Positions 1,864 through 21,708 of a stretch of DNA of 28,226 bases are shown piece by piece. How positions within the stretch are numbered: the first letter of the stretch is position 1; each line of letters starts with the position of its first letter. The stretch comes from Myxococcota bacterium. Its GTDB lineage: Bacteria; Myxococcota; XYA12-FULL-58-9; JABJBS01. The stretch is from contig JAYZAY010000055.1 in NCBI GenBank assembly GCA_036339465.1, forward strand, positions 1 to 28,226, written 5' to 3'. A program made the translations under genes and the position numbers. The notes under the pieces were generated by a model, which did not search any database, was not told the DNA's origin, and was given only the letters and a program-made list of their open reading frames with translations.

Positions 1864-2624
1864 ACGAAGCCCACGATCCCAACAAACTTCACTACGAGAA
1901 TCCATTCTTCCAAAAGATGATGTCGGTTCCTGGTCTCAGCGTCGCCATGTCCACTGTGGACCAACTCATGGCCTGGGGTAGCGCCAACAGCCTCTGGATT
2001 TTCCCCATGGCAACCTCCTGTTGCGGCATTGAATTTATGGCCGCTGCCGCCTCGCGTGTGGACTTAGACAGAATTGGCTCCATCGCTAGAGGTTCTCCCA
2101 AACAATGCGATGTCATGGTCGTGGCGGGTACCATCACCGTGAAAATGGCCCCGCGCGTCAAGAAGCTCTGGGACCTCATGCCCGAACCCAAGTGGTGCCT
2201 GGCTATGGGATCCTGTGCCATCAGTGGCGATTTTTACCGCGATATCTACTCAGTCATTCCAGGGATCGATACCGTGGTTCCGGTGGATGTTTATGTCCCG
2301 GGCTGCCCTCCCAACCCAGAGCAACTTATGGCCGGACTTATGAGACTCCAAGAGAAAATAAAACTACAGCAGCAAGGCAAATGGACCGCCCCCGAAACCC
2401 GACCCGAAACCGAAAAAATGATTGTCCCCGAAGTTGGCCGCCTGTGGGAATCCGACAGAAATACAGAAATCACCGAGGGCCAGATTTCCCGCTGCGCCAC
2501 CCTCGGCCTTAACGGAAACGAGATGGCCCAAAACGACGAACCAGAACTTGTTCAGATCCGCAAAAAAGGCGACCAGATCCCAACTCACCTCTCCTTTGCC
2601 GCAAACCCGAGTAAAAAAGGATAA
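1854..2624 (+). CDS. nuoB: NADH-quinone oxidoreductase subunit B with an ~86-aa C-terminal extension
   Basis: TSCCGIE (adjacent Cys pair binding N2), SPKQCD, MGSCA, VDVYVPGCPP; overlaps the end of nuoA. Confidence 0.97.
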   Translation: MAVNEAHDPNKLHYENPFFQKMMSVPGLSVAMSTVDQLMAWGSANSLWIFPMATSCCGIEFMAAAASRVDLDRIGSIARGSPKQCDVMVVAGTITVKMAPRVKKLWDLMPEPKWCLAMGSCAISGDFYRDIYSVIPGIDTVVPVDVYVPGCPPNPEQLMAGLMRLQEKIKLQQQGKWTAPETRPETEKMIVPEVGRLWESDRNTEITEGQISRCATLGLNGNEMAQNDEPELVQIRKKGDQIPTHLSFAANPSKKG

Positions 2625-2630
2625 AGAGTC

Positions 2631-3143
2631 GTGACGCCAAAGCTTTACCAACAAATTGCTCCCCTCCTCACACCCACTGTGGATGCCGATGGCAACGCCC
2701 TGCCCATTACCCCAGAACAAGTGGTCAATTTCGGGATGATGGTACCCCAAAATAAACACCTCGCCTTAGCCCAACTCCTCAAAGAAGCTGGCTATTCCAT
2801 ATACGTCACGGTGGTAGCCAGCCATTGGGAAGAACAAACCGTTAAGGGAAAATCGGCACCAGACCCCGAGCACTTCGAAGTGGCCACTGTTGTCCGCCAT
2901 CCAGGTCCCGGCGCCACCACCACTTTTAGTTGGCGTGTGCGCCTAGAGGTTGGGGAATCCATCGACAGCTTGGTAAGCCTCTATGCCGGCGCCGATTGGC
3001 AAGAACGCGAACAATACGACCTCGTCGGGGTTCGGTTTGATAACCACCCAGACCTACGGCGCTTAATGATGCCCGAGGATTGGCCGGGACACCCCCTAAG
3101 ACGTGATTATGCCATCGATACATCGCATTTTCCGTGGAGATAA
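2631..3143 (+). CDS. nuoC: NADH-quinone oxidoreductase subunit C
   Basis: ADWQEREQYDLVGVRFDNHPDLRRLMMPEDWPGHPLRRDY signature; GTG start. Confidence 0.95.
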   Translation: MTPKLYQQIAPLLTPTVDADGNALPITPEQVVNFGMMVPQNKHLALAQLLKEAGYSIYVTVVASHWEEQTVKGKSAPDPEHFEVATVVRHPGPGATTTFSWRVRLEVGESIDSLVSLYAGADWQEREQYDLVGVRFDNHPDLRRLMMPEDWPGHPLRRDYAIDTSHFPWR

Positions 3144-3149
3144 AGAACC

Positions 3150-4340
3150 ATGTCCATTGCCATGCCATCTCCCTTCGTTGCCGATCCGTATTTGGATATC
3201 GATGATTACGATTCCGATGCCGACTTAATGGTTCTCAATTTAGGTCCCCAACACCCGAGCACCCACGGCGTTTTCCGGATCAAACTCATCCTCGACGGGG
3301 AAATCATCATTAAAGCCATTTCCTACCCCGGGTACCTTCACCGAGGCGTAGAAAAACTTTGTGAGAAACTCAACTACGCGATGATTACCCCCATCGTGGA
3401 CAAAAACGATTACATCTCCCCCATGATCAATGAGCAAGCCATTAACATGGCATTTGAATCATTGATGGGGGTTGAAGTGCCACGGCGAGGTCGTTGGATC
3501 CGCACCATTCTAGCGGAAATGCAACGAGTTGCCTCCCATCTCATCGCCCTCGGCACCTTCGCCATGGATCTCGGCGGAGCCATTGGCGGTGGAGCTTCCC
3601 TCTTTATGTACATGTTCCGGGATCGGGAACTCATCCTAGATTGCTTTGAAGAATTGACGGGCTGCCGGTTCCATTACAATACCCATATTGCAGGTGGGCA
3701 ACGCCACGACCTCCCCGAAGGATGGAGTGAAAAAGTCAAAACCGCACTCGCTCAAATCACCCAACACCTAGAAGATTGCAAACAATTGGTAGTGGAAAAT
3801 CCGATCTTCGCTGATCGCACCAAAGGCGTGGGCGTTATCACCCAACAACTCGCCCTAGAATTAGGCCTCCAAGGCCCCATCGCACGGGCAAGCGGGGTGG
3901 ATATGGATTTGCGACGAGACGCTCCTTACCATTGTTACGATGAAGTCAAGGTAAACGTGGTCACAGAATCAAGCGGTGATACGTGGGCCCGATTCATGGT
4001 GCGACTCAGAGAGGCTCAGGAAAGCATTCGAATCGCCACAGAAATGGTGGATGGAGTGCCTGTTGGCCCCATTTTCGCTGGTAAAGTCGTCAAAACCGCC
4101 ATTGCCATCAAAATCAAGGAAGGTCAAAGCTACGTGGCTGTGGAAAGCCCTCGGGGAGAACTCGGCACCTACCTAATTGCGGGGGGCCCAAAAGGTATCT
4201 CCCCCTATCGTCTCAAAATACGACCGCCGAGCCTCCATGCCATCAGCGCCATCCCGTACATCCTGCCTGGTAATAACGTGAGTGATGCCATTGCTATCTT
4301 GGGTAGCCTAGATCCCGTCATGGGGGAGGTCGACCGCTAA
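3150..4340 (+). CDS. nuoD: NADH-quinone oxidoreductase subunit D
   Basis: NLGPQHPSTHGVFR, GYLHRGVEK, ESPRGELG, C-terminal LGSLDPVMGEVDR; lacks the NiFe-binding CxxC pairs of hydrogenase large subunits. Confidence 0.97.
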   Translation: MSIAMPSPFVADPYLDIDDYDSDADLMVLNLGPQHPSTHGVFRIKLILDGEIIIKAISYPGYLHRGVEKLCEKLNYAMITPIVDKNDYISPMINEQAINMAFESLMGVEVPRRGRWIRTILAEMQRVASHLIALGTFAMDLGGAIGGGASLFMYMFRDRELILDCFEELTGCRFHYNTHIAGGQRHDLPEGWSEKVKTALAQITQHLEDCKQLVVENPIFADRTKGVGVITQQLALELGLQGPIARASGVDMDLRRDAPYHCYDEVKVNVVTESSGDTWARFMVRLREAQESIRIATEMVDGVPVGPIFAGKVVKTAIAIKIKEGQSYVAVESPRGELGTYLIAGGPKGISPYRLKIRPPSLHAISAIPYILPGNNVSDAIAILGSLDPVMGEVDR

Positions 4341-5359
4341 TGAGCAACCTATCGGAAAACATAGAATTATTCATGGGCAACCCCTGGGGCCGCGGCGTGG
4401 TGCTCAGCATCGCCATTGTGACGGTGGTTATGACCCTCATCGCTTGGACTATATGGTTCGAACGAAAATTCGCTGGCCGCATGCAAAATCGGGTTGGACC
4501 CACTTTTGTGGGCCCCTTTGGTCTTCTCCAACCCCTGGCAGATGTCATTAAGATGCTCCGTAAAGAACTCATTATCCCGCGCGGCGCCGATCCCTTTCTC
4601 TTTTTACTCGCCCCACCTTTGACCTTATTTTTTACCTTGGCTGGATTGGCGGTGGTTCCCTTTGGCCCCTCCATTGTGGTTGCAGATTTGGAACTCGGCG
4701 TCCTATGGGCACTGGCATTTTCCGGACTCCTGCTCTTTCCGATCTGGATTGCCGGTTGGGCAAGCAACAACAAATACGCATTGCTCGGCGGCATGCGCGC
4801 GGTCGCTCAAGGCGTGAGTTACGAAGTGCCTATGCTCCTCACAGCACTCGTCCCCGTGATTCAATGCAGTTCGTTCAACATCACAGAGATTGTCAATTAT
4901 CAAATTGCCAACGGCTGGGTGATTTATTGGCCCCCCGGCCCAGGCATTTTCGCCGCCGCGATTTTCTTTGTGGCAAGCCTCGCCGAGGCCAACCGAATCC
5001 CCTTTGATATCCCAGAAGCTGAAAGTGAACTCATCGCTGGTGTCGGCGTAGAATATACAGGAATCCTCTACGGGCTTTTGCCCCTATCTGAATACCTTCA
5101 CACATTGATCTCCAGCGCCCTGGTCGCTGCGCTTTTTCTCGGCGGCTGGGATGGCCCCTTCGCACCTGGCATGCACTGGATGATCCTGAAAACCCTGACC
5201 CTCTTCGTCGGCATCCTGTGGATCCGGTGGAGCTTGTTACGCTTCCGCTCCGACCAACTGCTCCGTATCTGCTGGTACTGGTTGGTTCCTATTTCCATGC
5301 TCACTGTCTGTGCGGCAGCCCTCTCTAAATATCTATTGGCAAGCGGAGGTTCGCTGTGA
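4340..5359 (+). CDS. nuoH: NADH-quinone oxidoreductase subunit H
   Basis: ERKFAGRMQNRVGP, GLLQPLADVIK, SNNKYALLGGMRAVAQGVSYE, EANRIPFDIPEAESEL, RFRSDQL; its start overlaps the nuoD stop (TAATG). Confidence 0.97.
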   Translation: MSNLSENIELFMGNPWGRGVVLSIAIVTVVMTLIAWTIWFERKFAGRMQNRVGPTFVGPFGLLQPLADVIKMLRKELIIPRGADPFLFLLAPPLTLFFTLAGLAVVPFGPSIVVADLELGVLWALAFSGLLLFPIWIAGWASNNKYALLGGMRAVAQGVSYEVPMLLTALVPVIQCSSFNITEIVNYQIANGWVIYWPPGPGIFAAAIFFVASLAEANRIPFDIPEAESELIAGVGVEYTGILYGLLPLSEYLHTLISSALVAALFLGGWDGPFAPGMHWMILKTLTLFVGILWIRWSLLRFRSDQLLRICWYWLVPISMLTVCAAALSKYLLASGGSL

Positions 5360-5865
5360 AATATTTTTACTACGCTCTCCGCTCCATGTGGGTCACCTTG
5401 ATCAACCTCTTACGCAAACCTACCACCGATACGGGTTTTCCGCTTAACCCAAGACCCCGCCCCGAGCGTTACCGCACAAGCTTCGCCCTCGTTCACGATG
5501 AAGATAAAGAAGAAGCCTGCATCGCTTGTGCAAAATGCGAAATGATCTGCCCTTCTCAGATCATCACCGTCACACCGGGTAAAAAACGCGAATCACCCGC
5601 CACCGGAAAAAAACGAGGCTATCTCGATGATTTTACCCTAGATCTTCAGGCCTGCATCTTTTGCGAGCTCTGCGTTCAGGTTTGTCCCACAGATGCCATC
5701 CTCATGACCAGGTCCCCTCACAGGCCCGGGTTCGCCCGTGAGGACCTCCTACTCACCATGGACCGACTCTACGCCAACGAACCCCATGTCACTTGGGGCA
5801 CGGCCTCCTTGTTACTAGAAATGCAAGACCCTAAGCGCAATTTGCCCACCCAGGAAGGTGAATGA
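5356..5865 (+). CDS. nuoI: NADH-quinone oxidoreductase subunit I (2x[4Fe-4S])
   Basis: CIACAKCEMICP and CIFCELCVQVCP; GTGA overlap with nuoH; GGAGG RBS. Confidence 0.96.
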   Translation: MKYFYYALRSMWVTLINLLRKPTTDTGFPLNPRPRPERYRTSFALVHDEDKEEACIACAKCEMICPSQIITVTPGKKRESPATGKKRGYLDDFTLDLQACIFCELCVQVCPTDAILMTRSPHRPGFAREDLLLTMDRLYANEPHVTWGTASLLLEMQDPKRNLPTQEGE

Positions 5866-6356
5866 TGCTCGAATACGTCGCCTTTGGAATCATCAGCACG
5901 GCAATCGTGGGCTCAGCCATCGGGGCGGTAACGTCACGTAACTTGGTGCACTCTGTGCTTTTCTTAGCCTCTACCCTACTCTCCACAGCCGTGCTCTATG
6001 TGCACCTAGAGTCAGCCCTCATCGCCGGCATTCAGGTCATCCTCTACACGGGCGGCGTGATCACGCTCATGCTCTTTGGGATATTACTCACCGACGACAC
6101 CCATGCGGTCACACGTCAAAACCGTAGCACCGGGCACCTCGCCGGAGGCATTGGTGCCCTGGCTATGTTTGGATTTATCATCGCGAGTATCCACCAAAGC
6201 GCGCTACCATCCTTGCCGCAAACCTTCGACATCAACGCCAAAAGCATAGGATTTGCCTTCCTAACAAAGCACCTCCTCGCATTTGAAGCACTTTCTCTCC
6301 TCCTTCTCGCAGCCTTAGTCGGGGCCGTCGTTCTGGCCAGAAGGAGTGACCCATAA
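5862..6356 (+). CDS. nuoJ: NADH-quinone oxidoreductase subunit J
   Basis: RNLVHSVLFL, QVILYTGGVITLMLF, FEALSLLLLAALVGAVVLA; ATGA overlap with nuoI. Confidence 0.95.
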   Translation: MMLEYVAFGIISTAIVGSAIGAVTSRNLVHSVLFLASTLLSTAVLYVHLESALIAGIQVILYTGGVITLMLFGILLTDDTHAVTRQNRSTGHLAGGIGALAMFGFIIASIHQSALPSLPQTFDINAKSIGFAFLTKHLLAFEALSLLLLAALVGAVVLARRSDP

Positions 6357-6655
6357 TGACACTCGCAGCCTATCTCATCGTCGCCGCAGCGGTGTTTTGT
6401 TGTGGACTCTACGGGGTGCTTACCCGGCGAAACGCCATCGGTATGCTCATCGGCGTGGAGCTCATGGCCAATGCCGGCAACATCAATCTTATCGCTTTTT
6501 CCCGTTTTCTCGGTCAAGTAGACGGACAAGTCTTCACTCTCTTCGCCATCGCACTAACGGTAGCTGAAGTGGTGGTGGGGCTTGCCCTAGTGCTGTTACT
6601 CTACCGCAGTCGAAAAAACATCGATGTCGTTCAAGCCTCGGAGATGAAGGGATGA
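6356..6655 (+). CDS. nuoK: NADH-quinone oxidoreductase subunit K
   Basis: 99 aa; RRNAIGMLIGVELM and LTVAEVVVGLAL carry both conserved Glu residues. Confidence 0.96.
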   Translation: MTLAAYLIVAAAVFCCGLYGVLTRRNAIGMLIGVELMANAGNINLIAFSRFLGQVDGQVFTLFAIALTVAEVVVGLALVLLLYRSRKNIDVVQASEMKG

Positions 6656-8487
6656 GTACGTCGCTCTTGATACTTCTAACATTGTTCACCCCTGTAGGCG
6701 CTGCCCTGACGCTAGGGCTTCTGCCAAACTTTCGCCGGGCGGGCCGGCCCGCTGAGTATCTGAGCGTCGCGGCGGCTTTCGTCTCTCTGATTGCCGCAAC
6801 CGTTCTTTTTATAAGACAACAGTTGGTTTCCGATGCCACACCCCTCTTAGACACCCATATCCGTTGGCTCAGCCACAATGGGAAATCCCTGGTTGAAGTG
6901 GGTGCCACCATCGACGGTATTTCCGCCCCTATGCTTTTGGTGGTCGCCTTGGTCGCATTTTGCGTTCAGCTCTATTCCATGGGTTATCTAGCCGGTGAAA
7001 GCGGTGACGCTAGGGGGCGCTACTTCACCTATCAATCGCTCTTTATCTTCGCCATGGAGGCCATGGTGGTCGCCCCCAACGCCTTCCAGGTTTTTATGGG
7101 CTGGGAGCTCGTGGGTATGTGCTCTTATCTTCTCATCGGCCACTACTACCAAAAGCCAAGTGCTGCCCGTGCTTCACTTAAGGCATTTTGGGTTACCAAA
7201 TTTGCCGACATGGGACTTTTGTTTGGGCTTTTGGTTTTGTTCACAGTGGGGGGCTCCTTTGGCTGGGACAGCACCACCGTAACCAGCCTGGGTAGTTCGG
7301 GCGCAACCGCCGTCGCCGCGCTTTTCTTACTCGCCGTGGTGGGAAAATCCGCCCAATTCCCCCTTCACATTTGGCTACCCGATGCCATGGAAGGCCCCAC
7401 TCCGGTTTCCGCCTTACTTCACGCTGCCACCATGGTCGCCGCGGGTGTATATCTCATCGTGCGAACCTACCCTATTTTTGCGGCCGCTCCCGATGTGCTC
7501 ACAGTTATGGCCTATTTAGGGGCCTTCACCGCATTCTTTGCGGCCTGTGTGGCTATGGTCCAAACCGACATCAAAAAGCTCCTGGCCTACTCCACATGCT
7601 CACAACTCGGCTACATGGTCGCCGCCCTAGGTACTGGATCCCTCATGGGTGGCTATTTTCATCTCAGCACCCACGCTTGCTTCAAGGCTCTCCTCTTTCT
7701 CGCTGCCGGCTCCTTCATTCATGCCGTCCACAGCAACGAGATGGAAAATATGGGCGGGTTGTGGGCGAAGATGAAACTCAGTGCCATCCTTTTCATTATC
7801 GGTTCTCTCGCTTTGGCGGGACTGCCCGGTCTTTCAGGCTTCTTCTCCAAAGAGGTCATTCTCGAAGAACTTTCCCATAGTGGCCATGCCCTACCTTTTG
7901 TCGCCTGCATGCTCACCGCTGGTATGACCGCATTCTACATGACCAAAGCCTGCTTACTCGCGATTTTTGGGCCACCCTCCGAAGGCGCGCGCCATGCCCA
8001 CGAAAGTCCAAAAACGATGCTTCTACCCATGGGCATATTGGCGGCACTTTCCCTCGTGGCGGGCTTTGGCGGCACCATGCTCGCGCAGATGTACGGAGTT
8101 GAATACGCCTTTCATTTTGGAACAACCGGTATCATCGCCACAGCATTGGGGTTTGCGGGCATCGGCTTGGCGCTATTTGCCTATCTCCCCTCTCGGCGCG
8201 CCAACAATCCATTTGGAGCCCTAACTTCCGTGGGAAGCTTCATTCGATATGGCGCCGTAGACCGAACGGCTGCCTTCGCCTATCGCAACGGACTCTGTAA
8301 AATCGGCGCCGCAATCGGCTGGTTTGACCGCTACGTCGTGGATGGGGTCATGAATCTAACCGGGTGGTTGCCACTGGTAGCCGCCCAAAGATTGCGCCGA
8401 ATTCAAACCGGTGTGGTCACCGACTACGTCTACGGTGTAATCGTCGGTCTCATCGTGCTAATCGCTATGGGGACGGTGTTCAAATGA
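6652..8487 (+). CDS. nuoL: NADH-quinone oxidoreductase subunit L
   Basis: GWELVGMCSYLLIG, GKSAQFPLHIWLPDAMEGPTPVSALLHAATMV, DIKKLLAYSTCSQLGYM, HACFKALLFL, C-terminal D.YVVDG...RRIQTG. Confidence 0.97.
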   Translation: MSTSLLILLTLFTPVGAALTLGLLPNFRRAGRPAEYLSVAAAFVSLIAATVLFIRQQLVSDATPLLDTHIRWLSHNGKSLVEVGATIDGISAPMLLVVALVAFCVQLYSMGYLAGESGDARGRYFTYQSLFIFAMEAMVVAPNAFQVFMGWELVGMCSYLLIGHYYQKPSAARASLKAFWVTKFADMGLLFGLLVLFTVGGSFGWDSTTVTSLGSSGATAVAALFLLAVVGKSAQFPLHIWLPDAMEGPTPVSALLHAATMVAAGVYLIVRTYPIFAAAPDVLTVMAYLGAFTAFFAACVAMVQTDIKKLLAYSTCSQLGYMVAALGTGSLMGGYFHLSTHACFKALLFLAAGSFIHAVHSNEMENMGGLWAKMKLSAILFIIGSLALAGLPGLSGFFSKEVILEELSHSGHALPFVACMLTAGMTAFYMTKACLLAIFGPPSEGARHAHESPKTMLLPMGILAALSLVAGFGGTMLAQMYGVEYAFHFGTTGIIATALGFAGIGLALFAYLPSRRANNPFGALTSVGSFIRYGAVDRTAAFAYRNGLCKIGAAIGWFDRYVVDGVMNLTGWLPLVAAQRLRRIQTGVVTDYVYGVIVGLIVLIAMGTVFK

Positions 8488-10031
8488 ATCACCTACTAGA
8501 AATAATCATTGCAGCACCCTTCGTGGCTGCCCTTGTCATTCTGGCACTCCCGTCAGAGCAAACCATGAACATGCGAATCGTTGCCCTCTTAGGAGCCGGC
8601 GTGTCATTGGTCGGTTCTGTGGTGGTGGCTTTTCAATACGATATGGGTGTGGGGGGAGTGCAAATGCTCAACAGCTATCCCATCGTGCCCTCCCTGGGCA
8701 TCAATCTCACCCTAGGCGTGGATGGTTGGGGCGTGAGTCTCCTTTTGCTTACGGGGCTCATTATCTTCACCGGAGTCTTCGCCAGCTGGACCTTAACAGA
8801 CCGGGTCAAAGAATTTCACGTTTTTCTCCTGGTTTTGGTGGCCGGCGTCTTTGGAGTCTTCGTCTCTTTGGACCTCTTCATTTTCTTTCTCTTCTACGAA
8901 ATCGCCGTGCTACCCATGTATCTTTTAATCGGTATCTGGGGGTCCTCTCACAAAGTGGCGGAAGCGGGCCCCTTTCGTTTCGTTTGGAGAATGCTCGACA
9001 TCGGCGGCAAAGAATACGCCGCCATGAAACTAACCCTCATGCTCTTGGTGGGTTCGGCCCTGATCATTGCTGCCATGATAGCAATGTATCTCGAGGCCAA
9101 CCTCACGAGCTTCGATATGCTTCGATTAGAGAATGTCACTTTCAGTCACAGCCTTCAATTTTGGGCTTTCCCTTTTCTCTGGATTGGCTTTGGCACCCTG
9201 GGAGGGGTCTGGCCTTTTCACACTTGGTCACCCGATGGCCATGCCTCAGCCCCCACCGCAGTTTCCATGCTTCACGCCGGGGTCCTTATGAAACTTGGTG
9301 CCTTCGGGGTAATCCGAGTGGGCATGATGCTCTTGCCGGAAGGCGCTCAGGAGTGGGTCTGGCTGGTAGGAGGCATAGCTGCCATCAACGTCATTTACGG
9401 CGCATTGGGCGCTCTCTGGCAAAAAGACCTCAAATATGTGGTCGCCTACAGCTCCGTGAGCCACATGGGTCTGGTGATGTTGGGGGCCGCCACCTTGAGT
9501 GTGGCAGGATGGAACGGCGCCATCTACCAGATGTTTGCCCACGGATTAATGACAGGACTTCTCTTCGCCCTAGTGGGCATCGTTTACGATCGAGCCGACC
9601 ATACCCGCCACATTCCCGACTTTGGTGGATTTGGGCGCAAAATGCCGGGGGTGGCCGTCTTCTTTACCATCGCTTGTCTCAGCAGTCTGGGGATGCCTGG
9701 CTTTGCGGGATTCGTAGCAGAATGGTTGGTGTTTTTAGGAGCCTGGACCGGCCAACAGTTCTGGTGGGCCATGATCGGAATCGTCGGTGCATGGGTCACG
9801 GCCATCTATATCCTTCGCGTTTCTAAGAATATATTCTGGGGACCCGGTCCCTCCGATCGATGGAAAAACATCAGCGATGCTCGTGGCCAGGAATGGTTCC
9901 CACTTTGGGTGCTGGGCGGAGGCCTCATCGTTTTTGGGATCTGGCCCAACCTGATTCTAGACTTTATTGATTTGGCAACATCCACCTACCTTCCCTCGGT
10001 GACCAGCCTTGCCATGGAGGTACACCCATGA
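8484..10031 (+). CDS. nuoM: NADH-quinone oxidoreductase subunit M (515 aa; start corrected from the ORF track)
   Basis: ATG at 8484 overlaps the nuoL stop (ATGA). FYEIAVLPMYLLIGIWG, PFHTWSPDGHASAPT, KYVVAYSSVSHMG, QMFAHG, LGMPGFAGFVAE. Confidence 0.96.
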   Translation: MNHLLEIIIAAPFVAALVILALPSEQTMNMRIVALLGAGVSLVGSVVVAFQYDMGVGGVQMLNSYPIVPSLGINLTLGVDGWGVSLLLLTGLIIFTGVFASWTLTDRVKEFHVFLLVLVAGVFGVFVSLDLFIFFLFYEIAVLPMYLLIGIWGSSHKVAEAGPFRFVWRMLDIGGKEYAAMKLTLMLLVGSALIIAAMIAMYLEANLTSFDMLRLENVTFSHSLQFWAFPFLWIGFGTLGGVWPFHTWSPDGHASAPTAVSMLHAGVLMKLGAFGVIRVGMMLLPEGAQEWVWLVGGIAAINVIYGALGALWQKDLKYVVAYSSVSHMGLVMLGAATLSVAGWNGAIYQMFAHGLMTGLLFALVGIVYDRADHTRHIPDFGGFGRKMPGVAVFFTIACLSSLGMPGFAGFVAEWLVFLGAWTGQQFWWAMIGIVGAWVTAIYILRVSKNIFWGPGPSDRWKNISDARGQEWFPLWVLGGGLIVFGIWPNLILDFIDLATSTYLPSVTSLAMEVHP

Positions 10032-11563
10032 GTTCTTTGGCCTGGTTAACGGGTATGCATGTTCTCAACATCGAAGTAATGTTGGCCATCTGCGCGTTGG
10101 TTCTACTGCTCGCAGACATCATCATGCCCCACGGCGACAAAAAGGTCCTCGGCTGGGTTGCTGCAGCGGAGTTGTTACTCTGCCTCGTGGCCACTTTTGT
10201 TCTTGATCTGCAGGGCAGTGCACTTTCCGAAGCCTATTTCGGCGACCCCATGGCCGTCTTTTTTAAACGTCTTTTTCTCGTGAGTGGACTCGTCGCTATC
10301 CTCGGCTCCATGGAGCACATCGCTCAGATCGCCCCGCGCCGGCAAGGAGAATACTATATGCTCTTGCTCTTTAGCATCACCGGCATGTGCTTATTGGCGG
10401 GGGCAAGAAATCTCGTGCTGCTTTTGGTGGCCTTTGAATTCATGAGCATTCCCCTCTATGTCATGGCGGCCTATGCCAAAACCGGACCAGAATTCGAAAC
10501 CACCCAACACCGAAACAAACCCAAGTGGACCGAACCCGCCGAAGGTGCGTTCAAGCTCTTTATCATTGCCGCCGTAAGCGCCGGTATTACCGTCTATGGC
10601 CTCAGCTTGGTCTATGGGGCGACTGGCTCCACCGATATCAAGATGATTCGTGAGGCTTCCTCTTCACCGCTCTTCTCTTTGGGACTCGTGATGTTATTGG
10701 TGGGTTTTGGCTTCAAGCTAGGAGCCGCGCCCTTTCACATGTGGGTGCCCGATACCTATCAAGGTGCTCCTACTCCCTTCGTCTCCTTTCTTAGCGCCGC
10801 CCCAAAAGCCGCCGCCATCGCTGCCTTGGCACAAATTCTCCTCGGTGGTGCCCTCACCCACAGCTCAAAATGGACACCCTTGCTCTTAGTCGTCATTGTG
10901 GGCTCTCTCCTTTTGGGAAATACCTTGGCCCTTGTACAGAGCAATACCAAGCGACTCCTCGCATTCTCCGGCGTGGCTCAAATTGGTTTTCCGCTGATGG
11001 CCTTGGTAGCGGTCACTCCCACCGGTGTCGCCAGCGGCCAAACCGAAGGACTCGCCGCCGGACTCTTCTATCTAGCAGCCTATGTCGTGGCCAACATGGG
11101 CCTCTTTCTGGTCATCGAAGTACTTGAAACCGCCCAACCCCATCGAACCTTCGCCCAACAAGATATGAACGTCCTCTCCACCTTCGCTGGCCTGGGTAAG
11201 AGAGCACCGGGCTTAGCCATGGCCGCCTTACTCTTTCTGCTCAGTTTGGCGGGGATCCCTTTCGTGGTGGGTTTTTGGGCCAAGCTCTATGTATTCTTGG
11301 CGGTTTGGCAAGCCGGCTATGGCTGGTTGGTGGTCTTGGGTGCAGTGCTCTCGGTGGTGGGTTTGTTTTACTACCTACGAATCGCTCGCGCCATATACAT
11401 GGACCACGAGCCAGAAAGAACGAAACCCCTCAGCACCCCTACGACCATAAGCATCGCCATTGGTTTTTGCCTCGCGGCCACAGTCATCACCGGCCTCTAT
11501 CCCAATCCCCTCATCGAAGCAGCCCGGCAAGCAGCGCAGGCCTTCTTGCTATCGGGTGGTTAA
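10028..11563 (+). CDS. nuoN: NADH-quinone oxidoreductase subunit N
   Basis: GEYY, FEFMSIPLY, FKLGAAPFHMWVPDTYQGAPTP, KRLLAFSG, LSLAGIPF..GFWAK, YYLRI; GGAGG RBS; ATGA overlap with nuoM. Confidence 0.97.
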   Translation: MSSLAWLTGMHVLNIEVMLAICALVLLLADIIMPHGDKKVLGWVAAAELLLCLVATFVLDLQGSALSEAYFGDPMAVFFKRLFLVSGLVAILGSMEHIAQIAPRRQGEYYMLLLFSITGMCLLAGARNLVLLLVAFEFMSIPLYVMAAYAKTGPEFETTQHRNKPKWTEPAEGAFKLFIIAAVSAGITVYGLSLVYGATGSTDIKMIREASSSPLFSLGLVMLLVGFGFKLGAAPFHMWVPDTYQGAPTPFVSFLSAAPKAAAIAALAQILLGGALTHSSKWTPLLLVVIVGSLLLGNTLALVQSNTKRLLAFSGVAQIGFPLMALVAVTPTGVASGQTEGLAAGLFYLAAYVVANMGLFLVIEVLETAQPHRTFAQQDMNVLSTFAGLGKRAPGLAMAALLFLLSLAGIPFVVGFWAKLYVFLAVWQAGYGWLVVLGAVLSVVGLFYYLRIARAIYMDHEPERTKPLSTPTTISIAIGFCLAATVITGLYPNPLIEAARQAAQAFLLSGG

Positions 11564-11813: not shown

Positions 11814-13223
11814 TTAGGCAGCGATAGCGTCTCTTACTTCGACTTCCCGAAATAGCCGATTAAGGTCCTGTTTAAGAACTTTAAAGAGAGCCTTCTTTTG
11901 GGAGTCATCTGCAAAATCAATATCGCAGAATTTTCGAATACATGCAGTACCCACATCCCGAGCCTTATCGGATTCAATGATGCCCTCTTTCAGGGCAATT
12001 CGAGCTGCTTCGGCGTAGTTTTCGAAAACCCAAACCCCCTTCTTTGCCAATCGACGTTTTCTCATATCCGACATCCCCGTGACATTGTGGATAAAGACCC
12101 CCAACATCTGATCAGGGTGTTTTTCGAGCATCTCTAAGCCAACTTCCGTATCTTTTTGACCACTATCACCCACAAAGGTAAACTTTCCTTCGGGGTAGAG
12201 GCGGAGGTTGTTCTCAAAATTACTAAATTTCTTCGTTCCAATTCGCGATTCAGGAAACAAATGACAGAAGTCTCCGTAAAGTATCGTCGCAGAGGCGAGT
12301 CCCGATTTCTCCAGAGAATTACGAGTGTAATGGTCCATCAATCCAAAACCATCTTTCGGTCGCGCCGTCAGAAATGCAACCCCCAGGCTCTTGCCTAGGT
12401 CTTCCATGTCCGTTCGCCGTAAGGCCTGAATAAACTGCCCACTGCCCGGATAGATCGTCGATTTGGGATAACGGGTATCTTTCCAACCACAACACACCGT
12501 ATCATCAATATCTGCAAACACCCGTTGTTCGAGTACGTCGGTTTTCGGTTTGATTGATTCGATTTTTGCAATCGCCGTTTCTGTATTTGAGGTCCCGACG
12601 ACATGGCCCAGAATAACATTCAAACTCTTACCGATAAATCGTTTATCTAAGCACGCTTTAAACTCCCGCACATTGTCTGCATCAAGAGTTAAAATCAGTT
12701 CCAGAGCGAGTTTGGGTTTCCTGCAATAACTCTTGTCATACATGGTCTTGAAAACTCGAGATTTGACCTCAGGGGTCAATTCGCTTGCTCGGGCCTTAAG
12801 CACGGTCAAGCGCTCTGTCACAGTGCTCACCCAACAGGAATTTCCACTTTCCCGGAGAAGATTCACCATGTGAGCACGCTTCAACACCGTATTCAGGCTT
12901 GTCGAATCCAGAGTCGCTAGAATCTCGGTAATGGCAGCATCGTTGTTTGACCTATTATTTGTAGCAATAAGCCTCAAGAGAATTTTCTCTTCGTTGGAAA
13001 GGGTATTTTTCGGCTGGTCGAATCCTAGCGGCGGTAAGACGATCCCCTGAATTGCATCTGGATCTCCCAACTTATTCAAACCAAGATCCGTGGGTAGAAT
13101 TGTCAGGGGCTCGGTTTGTTTGGGCTCTATATTCAGCACTTTCTCTGCCTTCTTCGTGGAGGCAAGAATAGGTGCCGGCAAAATGAGTGGACTAAGGCCA
13201 ATTGCTCCAGAGGTTTTCACCAT
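11814..13223 (-). CDS. App1/DUF2183-like HAD-superfamily (phosphatidate phosphatase-like) protein with an unassigned N-terminal helical domain, 469 aa
   Basis: VFADIDDTV (DxDxT, 12498-12512), FLTARP, a conserved Lys region (GTKKFSNF) and FVGDSGQKD (GDSGQKD at 12150-12170); CAGGAG RBS before the ATG. Confidence 0.75.
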   Translation of the reverse strand: MVKTSGAIGLSPLILPAPILASTKKAEKVLNIEPKQTEPLTILPTDLGLNKLGDPDAIQGIVLPPLGFDQPKNTLSNEEKILLRLIATNNRSNNDAAITEILATLDSTSLNTVLKRAHMVNLLRESGNSCWVSTVTERLTVLKARASELTPEVKSRVFKTMYDKSYCRKPKLALELILTLDADNVREFKACLDKRFIGKSLNVILGHVVGTSNTETAIAKIESIKPKTDVLEQRVFADIDDTVCCGWKDTRYPKSTIYPGSGQFIQALRRTDMEDLGKSLGVAFLTARPKDGFGLMDHYTRNSLEKSGLASATILYGDFCHLFPESRIGTKKFSNFENNLRLYPEGKFTFVGDSGQKDTEVGLEMLEKHPDQMLGVFIHNVTGMSDMRKRRLAKKGVWVFENYAEAARIALKEGIIESDKARDVGTACIRKFCDIDFADDSQKKALFKVLKQDLNRLFREVEVRDAIAA

Positions 13224-13536: not shown

Positions 13537-15441
13537 CTACGCCCTCTGCATTGCAGACAACTGCGGAAGCACTGGGGGGAAGATCTCGGGTGCCTCTTTC
13601 AACATCCCGATTCTTTCGAGTTTCCCCCTTTGTTCTGGAGAGAGAATTCCCCTTTTCGAAGCTTCTTTCTGCATGGAAATCCAGCTTCGAAGAGCCGCAT
13701 GTTGACCGTCGTTTCGCGAAACCTTCACATCACCATAATCTTGCTTATATACGCGCAATGAATGGTACATGAAATTCCACTGTTCGGGGCTCACGGATTG
13801 GTGAAGCTCGAAACTCTTCTTCAATATTCGGTTCTTCGCAAATGAAAGACCAATGCAAGAAATAATGGTAAAGATCATAGCGGGGATGAAAATCATATTG
13901 AGACCGGGAACAAACGTTGCCGCAGCCATGGCCGCGCTTCCAATCACGAGACCCGCTGTCTTTGCCACACTCACCGCCTTCGCCGATATAGGCACTTTGG
14001 ATGTCGGACTCTTCAGGTCTTTGTAGGTTTCGTAGGCACTGGCTCCGATGGCCAAAGCCTGAAGTGCTGGAAAGACGTAGCTAAGGGCTGTGGCAATAGG
14101 CGCCAACCCCTTGGCGACAGTCCGTCCTAAAACTCCAAAGATCCTCCCCATCACCCCCACAGCCATCCCTCCCACCGACAAGGTTGTTAGAGCCATTTGA
14201 ACTTTGTTATTGGCTTGGAGTTTTTCCCATTTCTCAACCACATCCAGTTTTGACTTTTTCAACGCAGATTTTGGAATCTTTCCCAAAAGAAACTGGTCGA
14301 AACGTGTTTTTTCGTCATGGAGTTTGTCCCAAGTATGGCTGAGTTTCGCACTGATTTCTTCATCCTCCGGATGCTCCATCTTAAGGCACTGCAATTGAAC
14401 CAAATTGCGAGAATACATCTGGAGATTTTCTTTGTCGGGATATTGATTGAAAAGTTTGATAAATACCTTGTCTCTTTTCGGATCATCTTGCGACTGCGAA
14501 AGCCAATGCTGAAGGGCCAAATGGTCCGGAACAATGTCGCCCTTATGGGATTTCTGATGTAAATACATTCCCAAGGCCACCACAGGAACCAGGCCAGTCC
14601 ACACGGCAGCAGTAGCAATGGCCACGGTGTGGGCGGAAATGCCAGTCATGCGCCCCACACAGCGGGCAAAATTTGCAAAATCATGGCCGACGGAAGCTTC
14701 ATGGGCCAAGGTTGCGTTATCCATGAGAGCCGCGGTAATTGGGTAGCCTGAACTCATGAGATGCTGAGTCAATCCGCAGGCAAGTAAAGCATAACCTGCT
14801 GCAGGATGACTGTCTTTGAGTTTCATGCCACCGATAACCGCGAGCGAATTCAATGCGAGACCGGGCAAAGATCCCGAAAGAGAAATCCAAGCGCTCATAC
14901 CATCCGCTCCCATGGCTTCACCCAGGGCGTTTGGCTCTCCACCACGCACCCAAGCTTTGCCGAGGGCACCATCGTCACCCACATCATGGGCACCGAGTAA
15001 TCGACCGAGGGCTTTCATAGCTTCACTAAAGTTTTCAGCGTCGCCGATAGCCTCAGCATTGTCCCAACCGTCCACTTGAAAACGTGGTTCACGGCCAGGC
15101 GCATAATCGTGAAGGAGGTGCCCCCCTAGATAACCATGACCCACAACTTCGTGGAGTGACGTGTCCACACCCGTGGTCGTCATGAGCACAGCAGTGCCTA
15201 CGCCGGAAACAGCGCCGATGGTGGGTCGGATGAAACCGAATTTAGGGTTCAGGGGAACGCCACGTCGTGCATCTAAACGACTCGTATCAACAAGATCCCG
15301 ACGAAACCCAGGATCTCGAGCCAAGTCACACTCAGAACCCCAAGATTCATTTGATTCAATGGCGCTAGGTCTAGGTGCAACCTTTGCACCCCTCTTGGCG
15401 TTCCTGATGAGATTGGAATTAATCGGTGAAATAGTCGTCAT
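13537..15441 (-). CDS. Orphan polytopic membrane protein, 634 aa: M50B-like zinc-protease motifs, hydrophobic hairpins and a C-terminal helicase-associated (HA)-like domain
   Basis: Likely start is ATG 15441 (MTTISPINSN) after AGAGG. LHEVVGH at 15136-15153, ISLSGSL, GHDF at 14677-14688; C-terminal WNFMYHSLRVYKQDYGDVKV...LRSWISMQK...GILSPEQRGKLERIGM at 13603-13779. Confidence 0.7.
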   Translation of the reverse strand: MTTISPINSNLIRNAKRGAKVAPRPSAIESNESWGSECDLARDPGFRRDLVDTSRLDARRGVPLNPKFGFIRPTIGAVSGVGTAVLMTTTGVDTSLHEVVGHGYLGGHLLHDYAPGREPRFQVDGWDNAEAIGDAENFSEAMKALGRLLGAHDVGDDGALGKAWVRGGEPNALGEAMGADGMSAWISLSGSLPGLALNSLAVIGGMKLKDSHPAAGYALLACGLTQHLMSSGYPITAALMDNATLAHEASVGHDFANFARCVGRMTGISAHTVAIATAAVWTGLVPVVALGMYLHQKSHKGDIVPDHLALQHWLSQSQDDPKRDKVFIKLFNQYPDKENLQMYSRNLVQLQCLKMEHPEDEEISAKLSHTWDKLHDEKTRFDQFLLGKIPKSALKKSKLDVVEKWEKLQANNKVQMALTTLSVGGMAVGVMGRIFGVLGRTVAKGLAPIATALSYVFPALQALAIGASAYETYKDLKSPTSKVPISAKAVSVAKTAGLVIGSAAMAAATFVPGLNMIFIPAMIFTIISCIGLSFAKNRILKKSFELHQSVSPEQWNFMYHSLRVYKQDYGDVKVSRNDGQHAALRSWISMQKEASKRGILSPEQRGKLERIGMLKEAPEIFPPVLPQLSAMQRA

Positions 15442-15470
15442 TGACTTGCCTCTTGTTGTTTCCTGATAGA

Positions 15471-15497
15471 TTTTCGGCAACAAACGGCATCGGTTGC
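15471..15497 (-). promoter_or_regulatory. Putative alternative-sigma promoter GCAAC-N14-GCCGAAAA (copy 2)
   Basis: Minus strand GCAAC cgatgccgtttgtt GCCGAAAA(TCT), ending 29 nt before ATG 15441. Confidence 0.7.
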
Positions 15498-15530
15498 CTA
15501 CGCCTTTCCTTAATGATGAAAGAAAATCGG

Positions 15531-15545
15531 TGACTCAATGAGTCA
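15531..15545. promoter_or_regulatory. Perfect 7-1-7 palindrome, possible operator
   Basis: TGACTCA-A-TGAGTCA, 33 nt upstream (minus-strand sense) of the GCAAC element of motif copy 2. Confidence 0.4.
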
Positions 15546-15596
15546 TTCTAGGGTGCCTGAATCGGCGAAGAAACAGAGAGCTTCTGAGATAAGCCT

Positions 15597-15926
15597 CTAC
15601 TTAACATTGACGAATTGAAGTTCACTTGAATGAACATAGTACTTCGCATCAAAATTAACGTTTTTTCCCTCAGAATTGATGCCTGTAGCTTCCACACCAA
15701 CATAGCCATAGTGGTTGTAGATGGCTCTTTCACTGGTGGGATGCCATTCAGTGGACAGAGTCGACAGCATCACCCGAATGTTCGTCAGTCCTGGCACCTT
15801 AGCCTTAAATAGAGTAACCGCGTCGTTCTTAATTTTGGTTTCAAGAGCCGGATCAGGATTGGTGCCCGTAGTACCGATGGTGCCGTCAAGAATTGGATTG
15901 CTGCGAATGCTTGCTGAAAAGTTCAT
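15597..15926 (-). CDS. Small orphan protein, 109 aa (predicted helix followed by beta strands)
   Basis: ATG at 15926 follows a very strong RBS (GGGAGGAGG) and motif copy 3; no signal peptide or TM segment. Confidence 0.75.
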   Translation of the reverse strand: MNFSASIRSNPILDGTIGTTGTNPDPALETKIKNDAVTLFKAKVPGLTNIRVMLSTLSTEWHPTSERAIYNHYGYVGVEATGINSEGKNVNFDAKYYVHSSELQFVNVK

Positions 15927-15964
15927 GGTATCCTCCTCCCGAGAAGTCGAATGAGCAACGAAGA

Positions 15965-15991
15965 TTTTCGGCCTCATGCAATTTTTGTTGC
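15965..15991 (-). promoter_or_regulatory. Putative alternative-sigma promoter GCAAC-N14-GCCGAAAA (copy 3)
   Basis: Minus strand GCAAC aaaaattgcatgag GCCGAAAA(TCT), ending 38 nt before ATG 15926. Confidence 0.7.
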
Positions 15992-18741: not shown

Positions 18742-21708
18742 ATGTCTAAGTGTGTACCTGGAAGCAATTCCCGCTTTCCGAGGGTGTTGGTTATCGGCAA
18801 TGGCATGGTCGGCCAGAAGTTCCTAGAGACCCTCTCAGAGCTGGGTGGAGGTGATTGTTTCGAAATCGTCGTATTTGGCGAGGAATCCAGACCTGCTTAC
18901 GACCGCGTTCATCTTTCGGAATATTTTTCAGACAAAAGCGCATCAGAACTCGAACTATCTTCCGTCGAGTGGGCGCAAGAAAGAAACATCGCTCTGCGGC
19001 TATCCACCAAAGTGACACAAATTCACCGCGAACAAAAAACGGTAACCCTAGAAGATGGCCAATCCCTTTCCTATGATTATCTTGTTTTGGCAACCGGATC
19101 ATCTCCATTTCTGCCCCCGATTCCAGGCATCGAAACTGAAGGGGTTTTCGTTTATCGAACCCTCGATGACCTAGATGCAATTCAGGCCTACGGAACAACA
19201 TCTAAATCTGCTATCGTCATGGGTGGGGGCCTCCTAGGTTTGGAAGCAGCCAACGCCATGAAAAACCTTAACCTCGATACCACGGTTATAGAATATGCCC
19301 CGAGTCTCATGCCTAGACAACTCGACCTTGACGGCGGTTTGATTCTCAAAAAAGTAATCGAAGAACTCAATATTCCTGTCCTCCTAAACAAGCAAACCAC
19401 CAAGATATCTCAGGATGCGAACGGTCTTTCATTGGATTTTAATGGCGATGCTTCCATCAGCACAGATATGCTAATTGTATCCGCAGGCATTCGCCCCCGG
19501 GACGAATTGGCCCATGGTGCAGGTCTCACTATCGGAGAACGTGGTGGCGTGGTTGTCGACGACACCATGCGCACCTCTGACCCCTCCATTTTTGCAATTG
19601 GTGAAGTAGCCTCCTTTCAAGGGCAAACCTATGGCCTGGTTGCCCCAGGATATAACATGGCACAAGTAGCCGCCTCCATTCTAATGGCACAACCCGCACG
19701 TTTCCCAACACCGGATTTATCCACAAAACTTAAGTTGCTAGGTGTGGATGTTGCCACTTTCGGACAACTATTCACCGATGAAGAGTCGTCACAAATCGTT
19801 AAGTATACCGATCCAGGAAGGGGTATCTATAAACGACTCAACTTGTCTCTGGACGGAAAACAGCTCATCGGCGGAATGCTGGTGGGGGAAGCATCTGCGT
19901 ATCAAAACCTCTTGCAAATAATGAAGAACTCCCTGCCCCTTCCAGAATTCCCAGAGACGCTCTTATTGCCTAGCGGTGCCTCTACAGAATCACAGGAGCT
20001 CGAGCTTCCCGACTCCGCTCAAGTTTGTTCCTGTGAAAATATCAGCAAGGGAGCAATTCGAACTTGCATGGGCAAGGGGCAAGTCACCACCCTCGTCCAG
20101 CTCAAAGCAGAAACCAAAGCGGGAACCGGCTGTGGTGGATGCGCGCCTCTCTTGACAAAAATATTTCGTGATGAACTCGCCGCCCAAGGAAAAACTCTTG
20201 TCAATCATGTCTGTGAACACTTTACCTATTCTCGAAAAGAACTCTTCTCATTAATAAAAATACGTGGGTACAGAACCTTCAAAGACACGGTCGAAGGCAT
20301 CGGCGTCGGCTATGGATGCGAAACATGTAAACCTACGGTTGCTTCGATACTGGCCAGTCTCTGGAATGAACCAGCATTCGAACATGACATCATTCAAGAT
20401 ACCAACGACCGATTTATGGCCAACATACAACGGGGAGGAACCTACTCTGTTGTGCCGAGAATACCCGGTGGAGAAATTACACCAGATAAACTAATCGTAC
20501 TCGGTGAAGTTGCAAAAAAATACAATCTCTACTCGAAAATAACCGGTGGTCAGCGAATCGACCTATTTGGTGCCCATGTTCATCAATTACCCGATATTTG
20601 GGAAGAACTTATCGCAGCCGGTTTCGAAAGTGGCCATGCCTACGCAAAATCCCTCCGCACGATTAAAAGTTGCGTGGGGACAAGTTGGTGTCGCTTTGGT
20701 GTCGGAGACTCGACTCGATTGGCCATCAAACTCGAAAATCGATACCGTGGACTCCGCGCCCCGCATAAACTTAAATCTGCTGTTTCTGGATGCACCCGAG
20801 AATGTGCAGAAGCCCAAAGCAAAGATTTTGGAATCATCGCCACTGAACACGGATGGAACCTTTACGTGGGGGGAAATGGCGGAACCACACCAAGACACGC
20901 TCAATTGCTAGCGACAGACCTTGATGAAAAAACCTTGGTCAGCTTTATCGACCGCTTTCTAATGTACTATATTCACACTGCCGATAAGCTCCAACGCACA
21001 GCCCGATGGATCGAAGAACTAGACGGTGGAATCGACCGATTGCGGGAAATAATCGTCGGCGACATCATGGGCATCGGTGAGCAACTTGAATCTGAAATGG
21101 AAGCACTGGTTGGTCGATACCAATGTGAATGGAAAGCCTTAGTCAACGATAGCCAGCGACGCACCCATTTCTCTCATTTTTCCAATTCGTCGAAAGTGGA
21201 CCCAAATCTGGAATTCGTACAAATCAGACGACAAAAGCAACCCATAGCCTGGACCAAATCGATCGTCACCCAATCAGCTGCCAGGAACAAGAAGGAAGCC
21301 AGTCCATCCCAGGGAGCCTGGTTCAAAGCAGGGTCCATAAACGAATTGAATACAAAGGGTGGATCGTGTGTAAAAGTGGGAAATATGCAAATTGCCCTCT
21401 ATCATCTCCCGGAAAAACAGACCTGGTTTGCGACCCAGAATATGTGCCCCCATCGACGAGATATGGTTTTATCCCGAGGGCTCACAGGATACGCCGGAGA
21501 TACCCCGAAAGTTGCCTGTCCCCAGCATAAGAAAACCTTTTCCCTACTCACCGGCAAAGGTCTCAATGACCCCTCCCTGAATATCGAAACATATCCGGTT
21601 GAGATTAGAGATCAGGACATTTACGTTTTTCTTTCGAATAAAGTCGTCAAATCTTTTGATGACAGTAAAAACCGACACACCGTGGCCAGAGCTTGCGAAG
21701 TCGTCTGA
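18742..21708 (+). CDS. nirB: NAD(P)H-dependent siroheme nitrite reductase large subunit fused to a C-terminal Rieske (NirD) domain, 988 aa
   Basis: GNGMVG (FAD), GGGLLGLE (NAD), BFD-like CSCEN...GTGCGGC and CEH...GCETC, siroheme/4Fe-4S KSCVGTSWC and SGCTRECA; C-terminal NMCPH...LSRG...KVACPQHK; GGAGG RBS. Confidence 0.95.
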   Translation: MSKCVPGSNSRFPRVLVIGNGMVGQKFLETLSELGGGDCFEIVVFGEESRPAYDRVHLSEYFSDKSASELELSSVEWAQERNIALRLSTKVTQIHREQKTVTLEDGQSLSYDYLVLATGSSPFLPPIPGIETEGVFVYRTLDDLDAIQAYGTTSKSAIVMGGGLLGLEAANAMKNLNLDTTVIEYAPSLMPRQLDLDGGLILKKVIEELNIPVLLNKQTTKISQDANGLSLDFNGDASISTDMLIVSAGIRPRDELAHGAGLTIGERGGVVVDDTMRTSDPSIFAIGEVASFQGQTYGLVAPGYNMAQVAASILMAQPARFPTPDLSTKLKLLGVDVATFGQLFTDEESSQIVKYTDPGRGIYKRLNLSLDGKQLIGGMLVGEASAYQNLLQIMKNSLPLPEFPETLLLPSGASTESQELELPDSAQVCSCENISKGAIRTCMGKGQVTTLVQLKAETKAGTGCGGCAPLLTKIFRDELAAQGKTLVNHVCEHFTYSRKELFSLIKIRGYRTFKDTVEGIGVGYGCETCKPTVASILASLWNEPAFEHDIIQDTNDRFMANIQRGGTYSVVPRIPGGEITPDKLIVLGEVAKKYNLYSKITGGQRIDLFGAHVHQLPDIWEELIAAGFESGHAYAKSLRTIKSCVGTSWCRFGVGDSTRLAIKLENRYRGLRAPHKLKSAVSGCTRECAEAQSKDFGIIATEHGWNLYVGGNGGTTPRHAQLLATDLDEKTLVSFIDRFLMYYIHTADKLQRTARWIEELDGGIDRLREIIVGDIMGIGEQLESEMEALVGRYQCEWKALVNDSQRRTHFSHFSNSSKVDPNLEFVQIRRQKQPIAWTKSIVTQSAARNKKEASPSQGAWFKAGSINELNTKGGSCVKVGNMQIALYHLPEKQTWFATQNMCPHRRDMVLSRGLTGYAGDTPKVACPQHKKTFSLLTGKGLNDPSLNIETYPVEIRDQDIYVFLSNKVVKSFDDSKNRHTVARACEVV

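Follow-up and report, generated by a model that had tools for sequence, protein, structure and literature searches.

Site-2 proteases form the metalloprotease arm of regulated intramembrane proteolysis. Members of family M50 (RseP, SpoIVFB and M. jannaschii S2P; PF02163) share a membrane helix carrying an HE..H zinc motif, a short beta segment, a helix with small residues and proline, and a later invariant aspartate, which in canonical M50 proteins lies in an NxxPxxxxDG motif. Proteins of the Peptidase_M50B family (PF13398) are small and purely membrane-embedded, with HExGHA, GG and AG(Y/P) motifs and an aspartate before the last helix. To our knowledge, all described site-2 proteases use HExxH plus an aspartate. 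Here we analyze a contig of a Myxococcota bacterium (JAYZAY010000055.1, assembly GCA_036339465.1); the whole stretch of 28,226 nucleotides is referred to as the window. The gene at 13537..15441 on the minus strand encodes a 634-residue membrane protein that resembles both groups, with the M50 elements in an order that profiles align through short chlamydial proteins. In contrast to M50 proteins, it has HExxGH in place of HExxH, an aspartate within GHDF, some 33 additional residues inserted behind the zinc helix and a module of four transmembrane (4-TM) helices that is obligatory, and instead of the PDZ domain of RseP or the CBS domain of SpoIVFB it carries a single helicase-associated (HA) domain. 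We propose that the protein stays in its own bacterium as an intramembrane metalloprotease, that it belongs to the site-2 protease superfamily as a very divergent member and that HA is its cytoplasmic accessory domain, a proposal in which our belief and our doubt are about equal.

The relationship to M50 is not visible in direct comparisons with the family models. Neither PF13398 nor PF02163 matched the protein even at E ≤ 10, and neither reached its gathering score (26 and 27.2 bits, respectively). When the genome was searched in six frames, PF13398 gave five weak matches elsewhere and none in contig 55, and PF02163 at E ≤ 10 found two canonical M50 genes on contig 11, not the window gene. 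A profile built from the protein's homologues found nothing in the PDB (best E 0.33). From genomes belonging to the window's phylum, we also gathered and aligned 19 true M50B proteins. HExxH is present in all 19, whereas the window protein has HEVVGH. No conclusion drawn here depends on genome G195, which is marked as unpublished.

The link to the M50 clan instead runs through a group of short chlamydial proteins. In 250 genomes of the chlamydial phylum, the family profile gave few full-length matches and many short open reading frames (ORFs; 246-335 residues) covering only profile positions ~138-274. We retrieved eight such proteins (263-328 residues), all of which carry canonical HExxH, GG.T, AAGP and GHDF. 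Five of the eight match Pfam M50 and four match M50B, mostly below threshold; two have no match, and one passes the M50 cut-off (27.3 versus 27.2 bits). Aligned with hhalign, the family profile matches these proteins with a probability of 99.2% (E 1e-19, 176 columns), pairing HE-xGH with HEvvGH, AAGP with GSLP and GHDF with GHDF, and leaving family residues ~128-160 as an insertion. The short proteins in turn align with the true M50B proteins (96.4%, E 1.3e-9, 77 columns), while their profile found nothing in the PDB (best E 1.6). Because the family connects to the short proteins, and these to M50B and to the M50 profiles, it is linked transitively to the M50 clan, and at the level of profiles this link appears sound. 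A preliminary description of this DNA had called the protein M50B-like; that label stands for the superfamily but not for membership of Pfam M50 or M50B.

The short chlamydial proteins are the closest recognizable relatives of the protease domain. They differ from it in their small size and canonical motif, and they have neither the insertion nor the 4-TM module nor HA. As a separate observation, these eight proteins (L045-L052, from genomes G538, G506, G420, G537, G542, G336, G463 and G477) resemble an unannotated subfamily of the M50 clan. One of the short proteins has a public name, PNK_1422 of Candidatus Protochlamydia naegleriophila (290 residues, 'hypothetical protein').

Most of the family carries an altered zinc motif. 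HEVVGH follows directly on a hydrophobic stretch (residues 68-93), as had been proposed from the sequence. The canonical HExxH implied at that time is not what the protein has: the histidines stand at positions i and i+5 (H-E-x-x-x-H), and in the hhalign comparison HEVVGH pairs with the HExxH of the short chlamydial proteins across a one-residue gap. The motif residues are too well conserved to have arisen by chance: across 70 homologues, conservation is at least 90% at H97, E98, H102, G190, G205, Y233, G252, D254 and P286. Of 58 rows in the family alignment, 42 have HExxxH (nearly always HExxGH), 15 have HExxH and 1 is incomplete; adding genome-derived members and the eight short chlamydial proteins gives 74 rows, split 50, 23 and 1. 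The other two motifs recognized beforehand also find their counterparts in the short proteins. ISLSGSL (residues 186-192), read as an equivalent of the 'xxAGP' turn, pairs with AAGP, and GHDF pairs with GHDF. The aspartate of HDF is identical in 74 of 74 rows, whereas the histidine before it varies (H, N or D), and for this reason we favor D254 over H253 as the putative third metal ligand.

To follow the motif, we used a quick maximum-likelihood tree made without the motif columns and rooted on the short chlamydial proteins. HExxH forms lie on basal branches, and the tree needs 4 state changes, compared to 19.8 for shuffled labels; the branches starred on the tree force at least 2. Many branches are long and poorly supported, and we therefore use the tree for a single point, namely that, as judged from these sequences, the HExxGH hexapeptide is derived within the family and clustered. 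Since the glutamate, both histidines and the aspartate were retained after the insertion, the alignment argues for a working zinc site. There is a soluble precedent. In dipeptidyl peptidase III (DPP III, family M49), the zinc motif HExxGH is functional, and other enzymes of that family have HExxH (PMC5805324, PMC9820243), much as the two forms coexist here. DPP III differs in being a soluble two-domain exopeptidase, and we found no Pfam, PDB sequence or fold match to it, so that the likeness is one of motif only. Our literature search found no paper combining HEXXXH with a site-2 protease.

The same insertion raises the question of whether the enzyme is dead. A pseudoprotease could use the fold as a scaffold, a channel or an anchor for HA, for example by holding DNA or the nucleoid at the membrane. 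The changed spacing of the motif, the silence of every M50 model and the two canonical M50 proteins already in the genome are all consistent with such a role. However, conservation of all four residues after the insertion would not be expected if catalysis had been lost, and the hexapeptide is active in DPP III according to the papers cited above. We consider a dead pseudoprotease unlikely.

Structure prediction points the same way as the profile chain. With the family alignment, AlphaFold2 modeled residues 60-320 at a mean predicted local distance difference test (pLDDT) score of 95.3 and a predicted template modeling (pTM) score of 0.88; the full-length model reached 85.7 and 0.73. In a VIA-align search of 48,161 chains, the longest alignments of low root-mean-square deviation (rmsd) were to SpoIVFB (8vjl_A; Z 6.1, rmsd 3.9, 121 residues aligned) and to an RseP orthologue (7w6z_A; Z 5.5, rmsd 4.2, 138 aligned), both standing amid unrelated helical proteins of equal Z. 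A structure search of the ESM Atlas placed Peptidase_M50 clusters in rows 1, 2, 3 and 5 of the top five (template modeling score 0.40-0.44 over 125-142 residues), and a feature search there with the protease part gave scores of at most 0.81 and no family. These routes are individually weak, and they agree with the profile chain on a core that is probably site-2-protease-like.

We investigated which parts of the protein define its family. Searching 5.8 billion proteins by a word index returned 8 relatives. HMMER, run exhaustively against 1.84 billion cluster representatives, returned 1561 matches at E ≤ 0.001, the majority of them multi-repeat HA proteins aligned only to residues ~550-615. With local phmmer, 80 of 157 stored proteins align to the N-terminal part, the middle part or both, and the HA tail is matched as well in 11 of these 80; Pfam detects HA in 9 of 70 members. 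M50 and M50B are absent among the first 25 of the 71 Pfam families listed for those members. Because HA occurs in a minority while the other parts are common, the N-terminal domain together with the four-helix module forms the core of the family, to which HA has been added in some members. The preliminary description had overlooked this division between core and minority add-on, along with the HExxGH form of the motif. The family comprises about 80 cluster representatives, and every named cluster member that we looked up is called "hypothetical protein".

The two long hydrophobic hairpins of the four-helix module, noticed in the first reading of the sequence, are borne out by hydropathy and by the model. 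So is the charged helical linker that precedes them (20 K+R and 19 D+E over residues 298-430). The first hairpin stays together with the protease domain throughout the family. Atlas rows for residues 300-550 were incoherent (HTH_AraC, SpoIIE, ABC2, HisKA_7TM), and we therefore regard the module as one with no known relative. In an alignment of nine sequences, W185, I186, S187, G190, S191, P193 and G194 are invariant in the kinked helix of the protease domain. The family-specific insertion separates the strands that come after the zinc-motif helix.

Some family members depart from this layout. Three that keep HExxH (P0047, P0048 and P0049) have N-terminal extensions of ~115-350 residues before the protease domain, and among the Pfam families listed for the 70 members none is common to more than a few. 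In one chlamydial-phylum genome, an intact homologue adjoins a fragment interrupted by four in-frame stops (3 TAG, 1 TAA; region G535:C122:275-1882), and on a Parachlamydiales chromosome only a 246-residue piece of the domain is left (G303:C1:932445-933068; both under L043/L044). These remnants suggest decay of some family copies.

The HA assignment made from the sequence pattern is well supported. PF03457 matches the protein over model positions 2-64 of 64 (E 2.6e-11, 44.1 bits against a cut-off of 28.4), and in a six-frame search of the genome this is the single HA match (E 4.2e-12, 48.6 bits, same place). The earlier observation of one HA domain on a membrane protein without a helicase likewise holds, as the protein and the genome each have a single copy, the protein has no helicase domain, and no tandem array on a helicase or other nucleic-acid enzyme is present. 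The HA segment alone had no match in the PDB. For comparison, we took the 58 of 77 non-family matches that fit a 50,000-residue limit. All 58 have HA in arrays, with 4 to 22 matched stretches per array, and their partner domains include Helicase_C (13), ResIII (8) and DEAD (7), Mrr and HNH nucleases, one sigma-70 and one Lon_C; M50 is absent among the first 25 of the 40 families listed for them. Unlike these proteins, the window protein has a single copy. In published accounts, HA is joined to PLD nucleases and also to TniQ. The domain reportedly binds DNA, according to a nuclear magnetic resonance study by Mills and coworkers from 2013. Compared with these proteins, one HA copy on a polytopic protein of the membrane is unusual.

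The full-length model and hydropathy together give about nine membrane helices. Modeled helices 71-90 and 92-110 are separated by one residue, and we read them as one long kinked helix. Positively charged residues are concentrated in the N-terminal tail, in the lysine-rich loop between the hairpins (471-486) and in a cluster after the last helix. By the positive-inside rule, the tail, the linker, the inter-hairpin loop and HA would therefore be cytoplasmic, with HA and the charged linker facing the same side.

According to our proposal, the protein would be polytopic in the bacterium's own cytoplasmic membrane. Zinc would be held by H97 and H102 of HExxGH and by D254, with E98 as the catalytic base. 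The four-helix module is probably part of the enzyme, because it is always attached to the protease domain, and might serve in gating or substrate docking. The enzyme would then carry out regulated intramembrane proteolysis of some membrane substrate. HA, following the last membrane helix, may be an accessory domain on the cytoplasmic side, where it would bind nucleic acid or bring in and position a partner. The PDZ domain of RseP and the CBS domain of SpoIVFB offer a parallel for such a role.

The same parts could also form a self-contained switch, in which the protease cuts its own C-terminal hairpins and frees HA as a DNA-binding regulator. One chain would hold protease-like and DNA-context domains with four membrane helices between them, no substrate gene is conserved nearby, and the inter-hairpin loop and hairpin turns are strongly conserved. 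Site-2 proteases typically free membrane-bound transcription factors (PMC5249076), which also counts toward a switch. However, most members have no recognizable HA by either of the counts given above, so release of HA cannot be the general function of the family. In addition, a single HA of ~60 residues is not known to bind specific DNA sequences. A self-cutting switch is, in our view, improbable.

The distribution of the family bears on a different possibility. Homologues come from metagenome-assembled genomes (MAGs) titled Chlamydiae, Rhabdochlamydiaceae and Parachlamydiales, from one record titled Chlamydia trachomatis MAG, and from a Legionellaceae MAG and a Myxococcota MAG, the latter being the closest of these at 46% identity. 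The family is patchy, occurring in 4 of 301 genomes of the window's phylum and in 19 of 250 sampled genomes of the chlamydial phylum. Such a pattern would fit an effector that is secreted and, like the Inc proteins of chlamydiae, takes its place in the membrane of a host vacuole or of prey, exposing HA and the linker to the host cytosol. The two bilobed hydrophobic hairpins, the disordered low-complexity N-terminus and an ankyrin-repeat gene beside one homologue (locus L008) resemble what such effectors have. Unlike Inc proteins, the window protein has about nine membrane helices, comprising two hairpins and a five-helix polar core with the catalytic residues, and its nearest outgroup is the ordinary small M50-like membrane proteins.

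Secretion machinery in the window's genome (4.17 Mb, 92.8% complete) does not favor export either. We found one FHIPEP only, and no non-flagellar type III export gate; DotI/IcmL was not found, while the positive control, a Legionellaceae MAG (G302), gave E 1.4e-61, and VirB4 was not found. The matches listed from the literature on Inc and bilobed proteins do not mention a site-2 protease. Because of the scant secretion machinery, the nine or so membrane helices and the small M50-like nearest relatives, we favor a resident inner-membrane enzyme for the window gene. A GC content near that of the genome (values below) also speaks for a resident protein. An effector is quite unlikely here, and we keep that alternative mainly for the chlamydial members.

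A defense protease, in which HA senses foreign DNA and activates a toxic membrane protease, is very improbable: HA is fused to nucleases in defense contexts (PMC12191111) and Mrr- and HNH-type nuclease domains occur among the HA-repeat proteins, but PADLOC has no model matching the protein or four of its neighbors, and the gene lies among respiratory and nitrogen-metabolism genes in a context that is not conserved, with no defense island.

Several results weigh against a resident, active metalloprotease. The one-residue insertion could have abolished catalysis. Residues 1-550 have no match in Pfam, NCBIfam or PDB sequence searches, and the direct hhalign comparison of the family with the 19 M50B proteins gave a probability of 18.7% (E 0.0013) over 20 gapped columns around the motif. 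Foldseek, suggested at the outset as a check on AlphaFold models, found nothing in the PDB at E ≤ 0.001 for either the domain or the full-length model. The VIA-align scores do not exceed Z 6.6, a range that the tool calls common for helical models and in which transporters score equally high, and the Atlas rows are all flagged 'under the bar'. Our topology sketch would place residues 111-171, an acidic segment of 61 residues, toward the outer face together with both metal-ligand motifs, which is not where canonical site-2 proteases have their metal ligands. There is no substrate candidate, as neighbors are not conserved, and the spread over Chlamydiota and Legionellaceae is what would be expected of a family of host-directed effectors.

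The features of the gene and protein are collected in Table 1. The ORF list of the window gives an ORF spanning 13537-15483 on the minus strand. We prefer the ATG at 15441 as the start, because AAGAGG lies 7 nt upstream and a 634-residue homologue with 98% identity starts at the same residue; reading from there gives the 634 codons and a stop codon. The upstream terminator-like hairpin together with the gene's own ribosome-binding site suggests a separate, monocistronic transcription unit, as far as can be read from the DNA. RNA data neither support nor oppose expression, with one run (share 0.06) yielding two 151-nt contigs (15193-15343 and 15452-15602) and three other runs blank. Recent horizontal transfer was considered from composition and set aside, since the guanine-plus-cytosine (GC) content of the gene is unremarkable (50.7% versus 48.9 ± 2.3% for the genome).

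Table 1. Features of the gene and of the encoded protein, with positions in the window.
Feature	Position	Strand	Residues	Basis and remarks
N-terminal tail	15232..15441	-	1-70	Low confidence or disordered, pLDDT 41-54 over most; 12 K+R versus 8 D+E
Site-2-protease-like membrane domain	14551..15231	-	71-297	AlphaFold2 model, hhalign, weak structure matches
HEVVGH (H97, E98, H102)	15136..15153	-	97-102	Hexapeptide zinc-motif variant HExxGH; translation
Family-specific insertion, ~33 residues	14962..15060	-	128-160	Gap versus short M50-like proteins in hhalign; two short helices in modeled secondary structure
AWISLSGSLPG	14860..14892	-	184-194	Kinked membrane helix, counterpart of AAGP (hhalign)
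GHDF	14677..14688	-	252-255	D254 putative third metal ligand; aligned with GHDF of short M50-like proteins
Charged helical linker	14206..14550	-	298-412	Helices 300-412 in full-length model
First hydrophobic helical hairpin	14011..14205	-	413-477	Hydropathy; modeled helices 413-441 and 444-477
Conserved inter-hairpin loop	13960..14034	-		Y470, Y473, D475, P484, A487, K488, S491 and K494 invariant in 9 sequences; lysine-rich
Second hydrophobic helical hairpin	13792..13989	-	485-550	Hydropathy maximum 2.26; modeled helices 485-510 and 515-550
Single HA domain	13603..13788	-	552-613	PF03457; three modeled helices, 552-569, 579-596 and 602-610
C-terminal tail	13540..13602	-	614-634	Low confidence; pLDDT <50 for 621-634
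Shine-Dalgarno-like AAGAGG	15449..15454	-		7 nt before the ATG; read from sequence
Terminator-like hairpin	15531..15545	-		3' of the upstream 126-residue ORF; consensus scan, pattern match only

The gene is flanked by the nuoA-N operon and genes for an APP1-like phosphatase, a 126-residue ORF, YceI, a Zn_peptidase_2 protein and nitrite and nitrate reduction. No window neighbor recurs beside the homologues examined; at locus L002 the neighbors are a cation-efflux gene and a VWA gene, and at L008 methyltransferase genes accompany the ankyrin-repeat gene. Directly upstream and on the same strand, the 126-residue ORF (15597-15977, minus strand) has no Pfam or PADLOC match. Downstream, a 469-residue protein (11814-13223, minus strand) matches the catalytic domain of APP1 phosphatidate phosphatase at its C-terminus (PF09949, E 4.2e-9) after an N-terminal extension of ~280 residues without a match. 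This is a eukaryote-style (yeast-type) lipid phosphatase, unusual in a bacterium. The complex I operon (1501-11563, plus strand) encodes nuoA, B, C, D, H, I, J, (K), L, M and N, without genes for NuoE/F/G in the interval from D to H, and has a GC content of 54.2% compared to a genome mean of 48.9%. On the other side, a 988-residue NirB-type nitrite reductase with a fused C-terminal Rieske (NirD-like) domain (18742-21708, plus strand) is followed by an MFS transporter and a molybdopterin oxidoreductase set.

What appears new is a divergent, unannotated branch of the site-2 proteases with HExxGH, an extra four-helix module and, in this clade, an HA tail. Among the matches listed from the literature on M50B and PF13398, we found no such architecture. 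A more ambitious account would have the undescribed branch turn HExxH into HExxGH, acquire its obligatory module and an HA tail in one clade, work as a one-polypeptide switch that cuts itself and frees HA to act on DNA, and move horizontally between the intracellular Chlamydiota and Legionellaceae and marine Myxococcota. We regard that combination, taken as a whole, as unlikely.

If the zinc site is functional as predicted, the motif of the site-2 protease fold would have tolerated a one-residue insertion with all of its catalytic residues kept, the same split that is seen in soluble DPP III. Because M50 models miss the family, counts of intramembrane proteases in Chlamydiota and some marine bacteria may be too low. 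If the chlamydial members are secreted, they would represent a protease-type membrane effector. For the Myxococcota protein, a domain of the helicase and nuclease type on the cytoplasmic end of a membrane protease would, if true, be a compact way to couple an event in the membrane to DNA.

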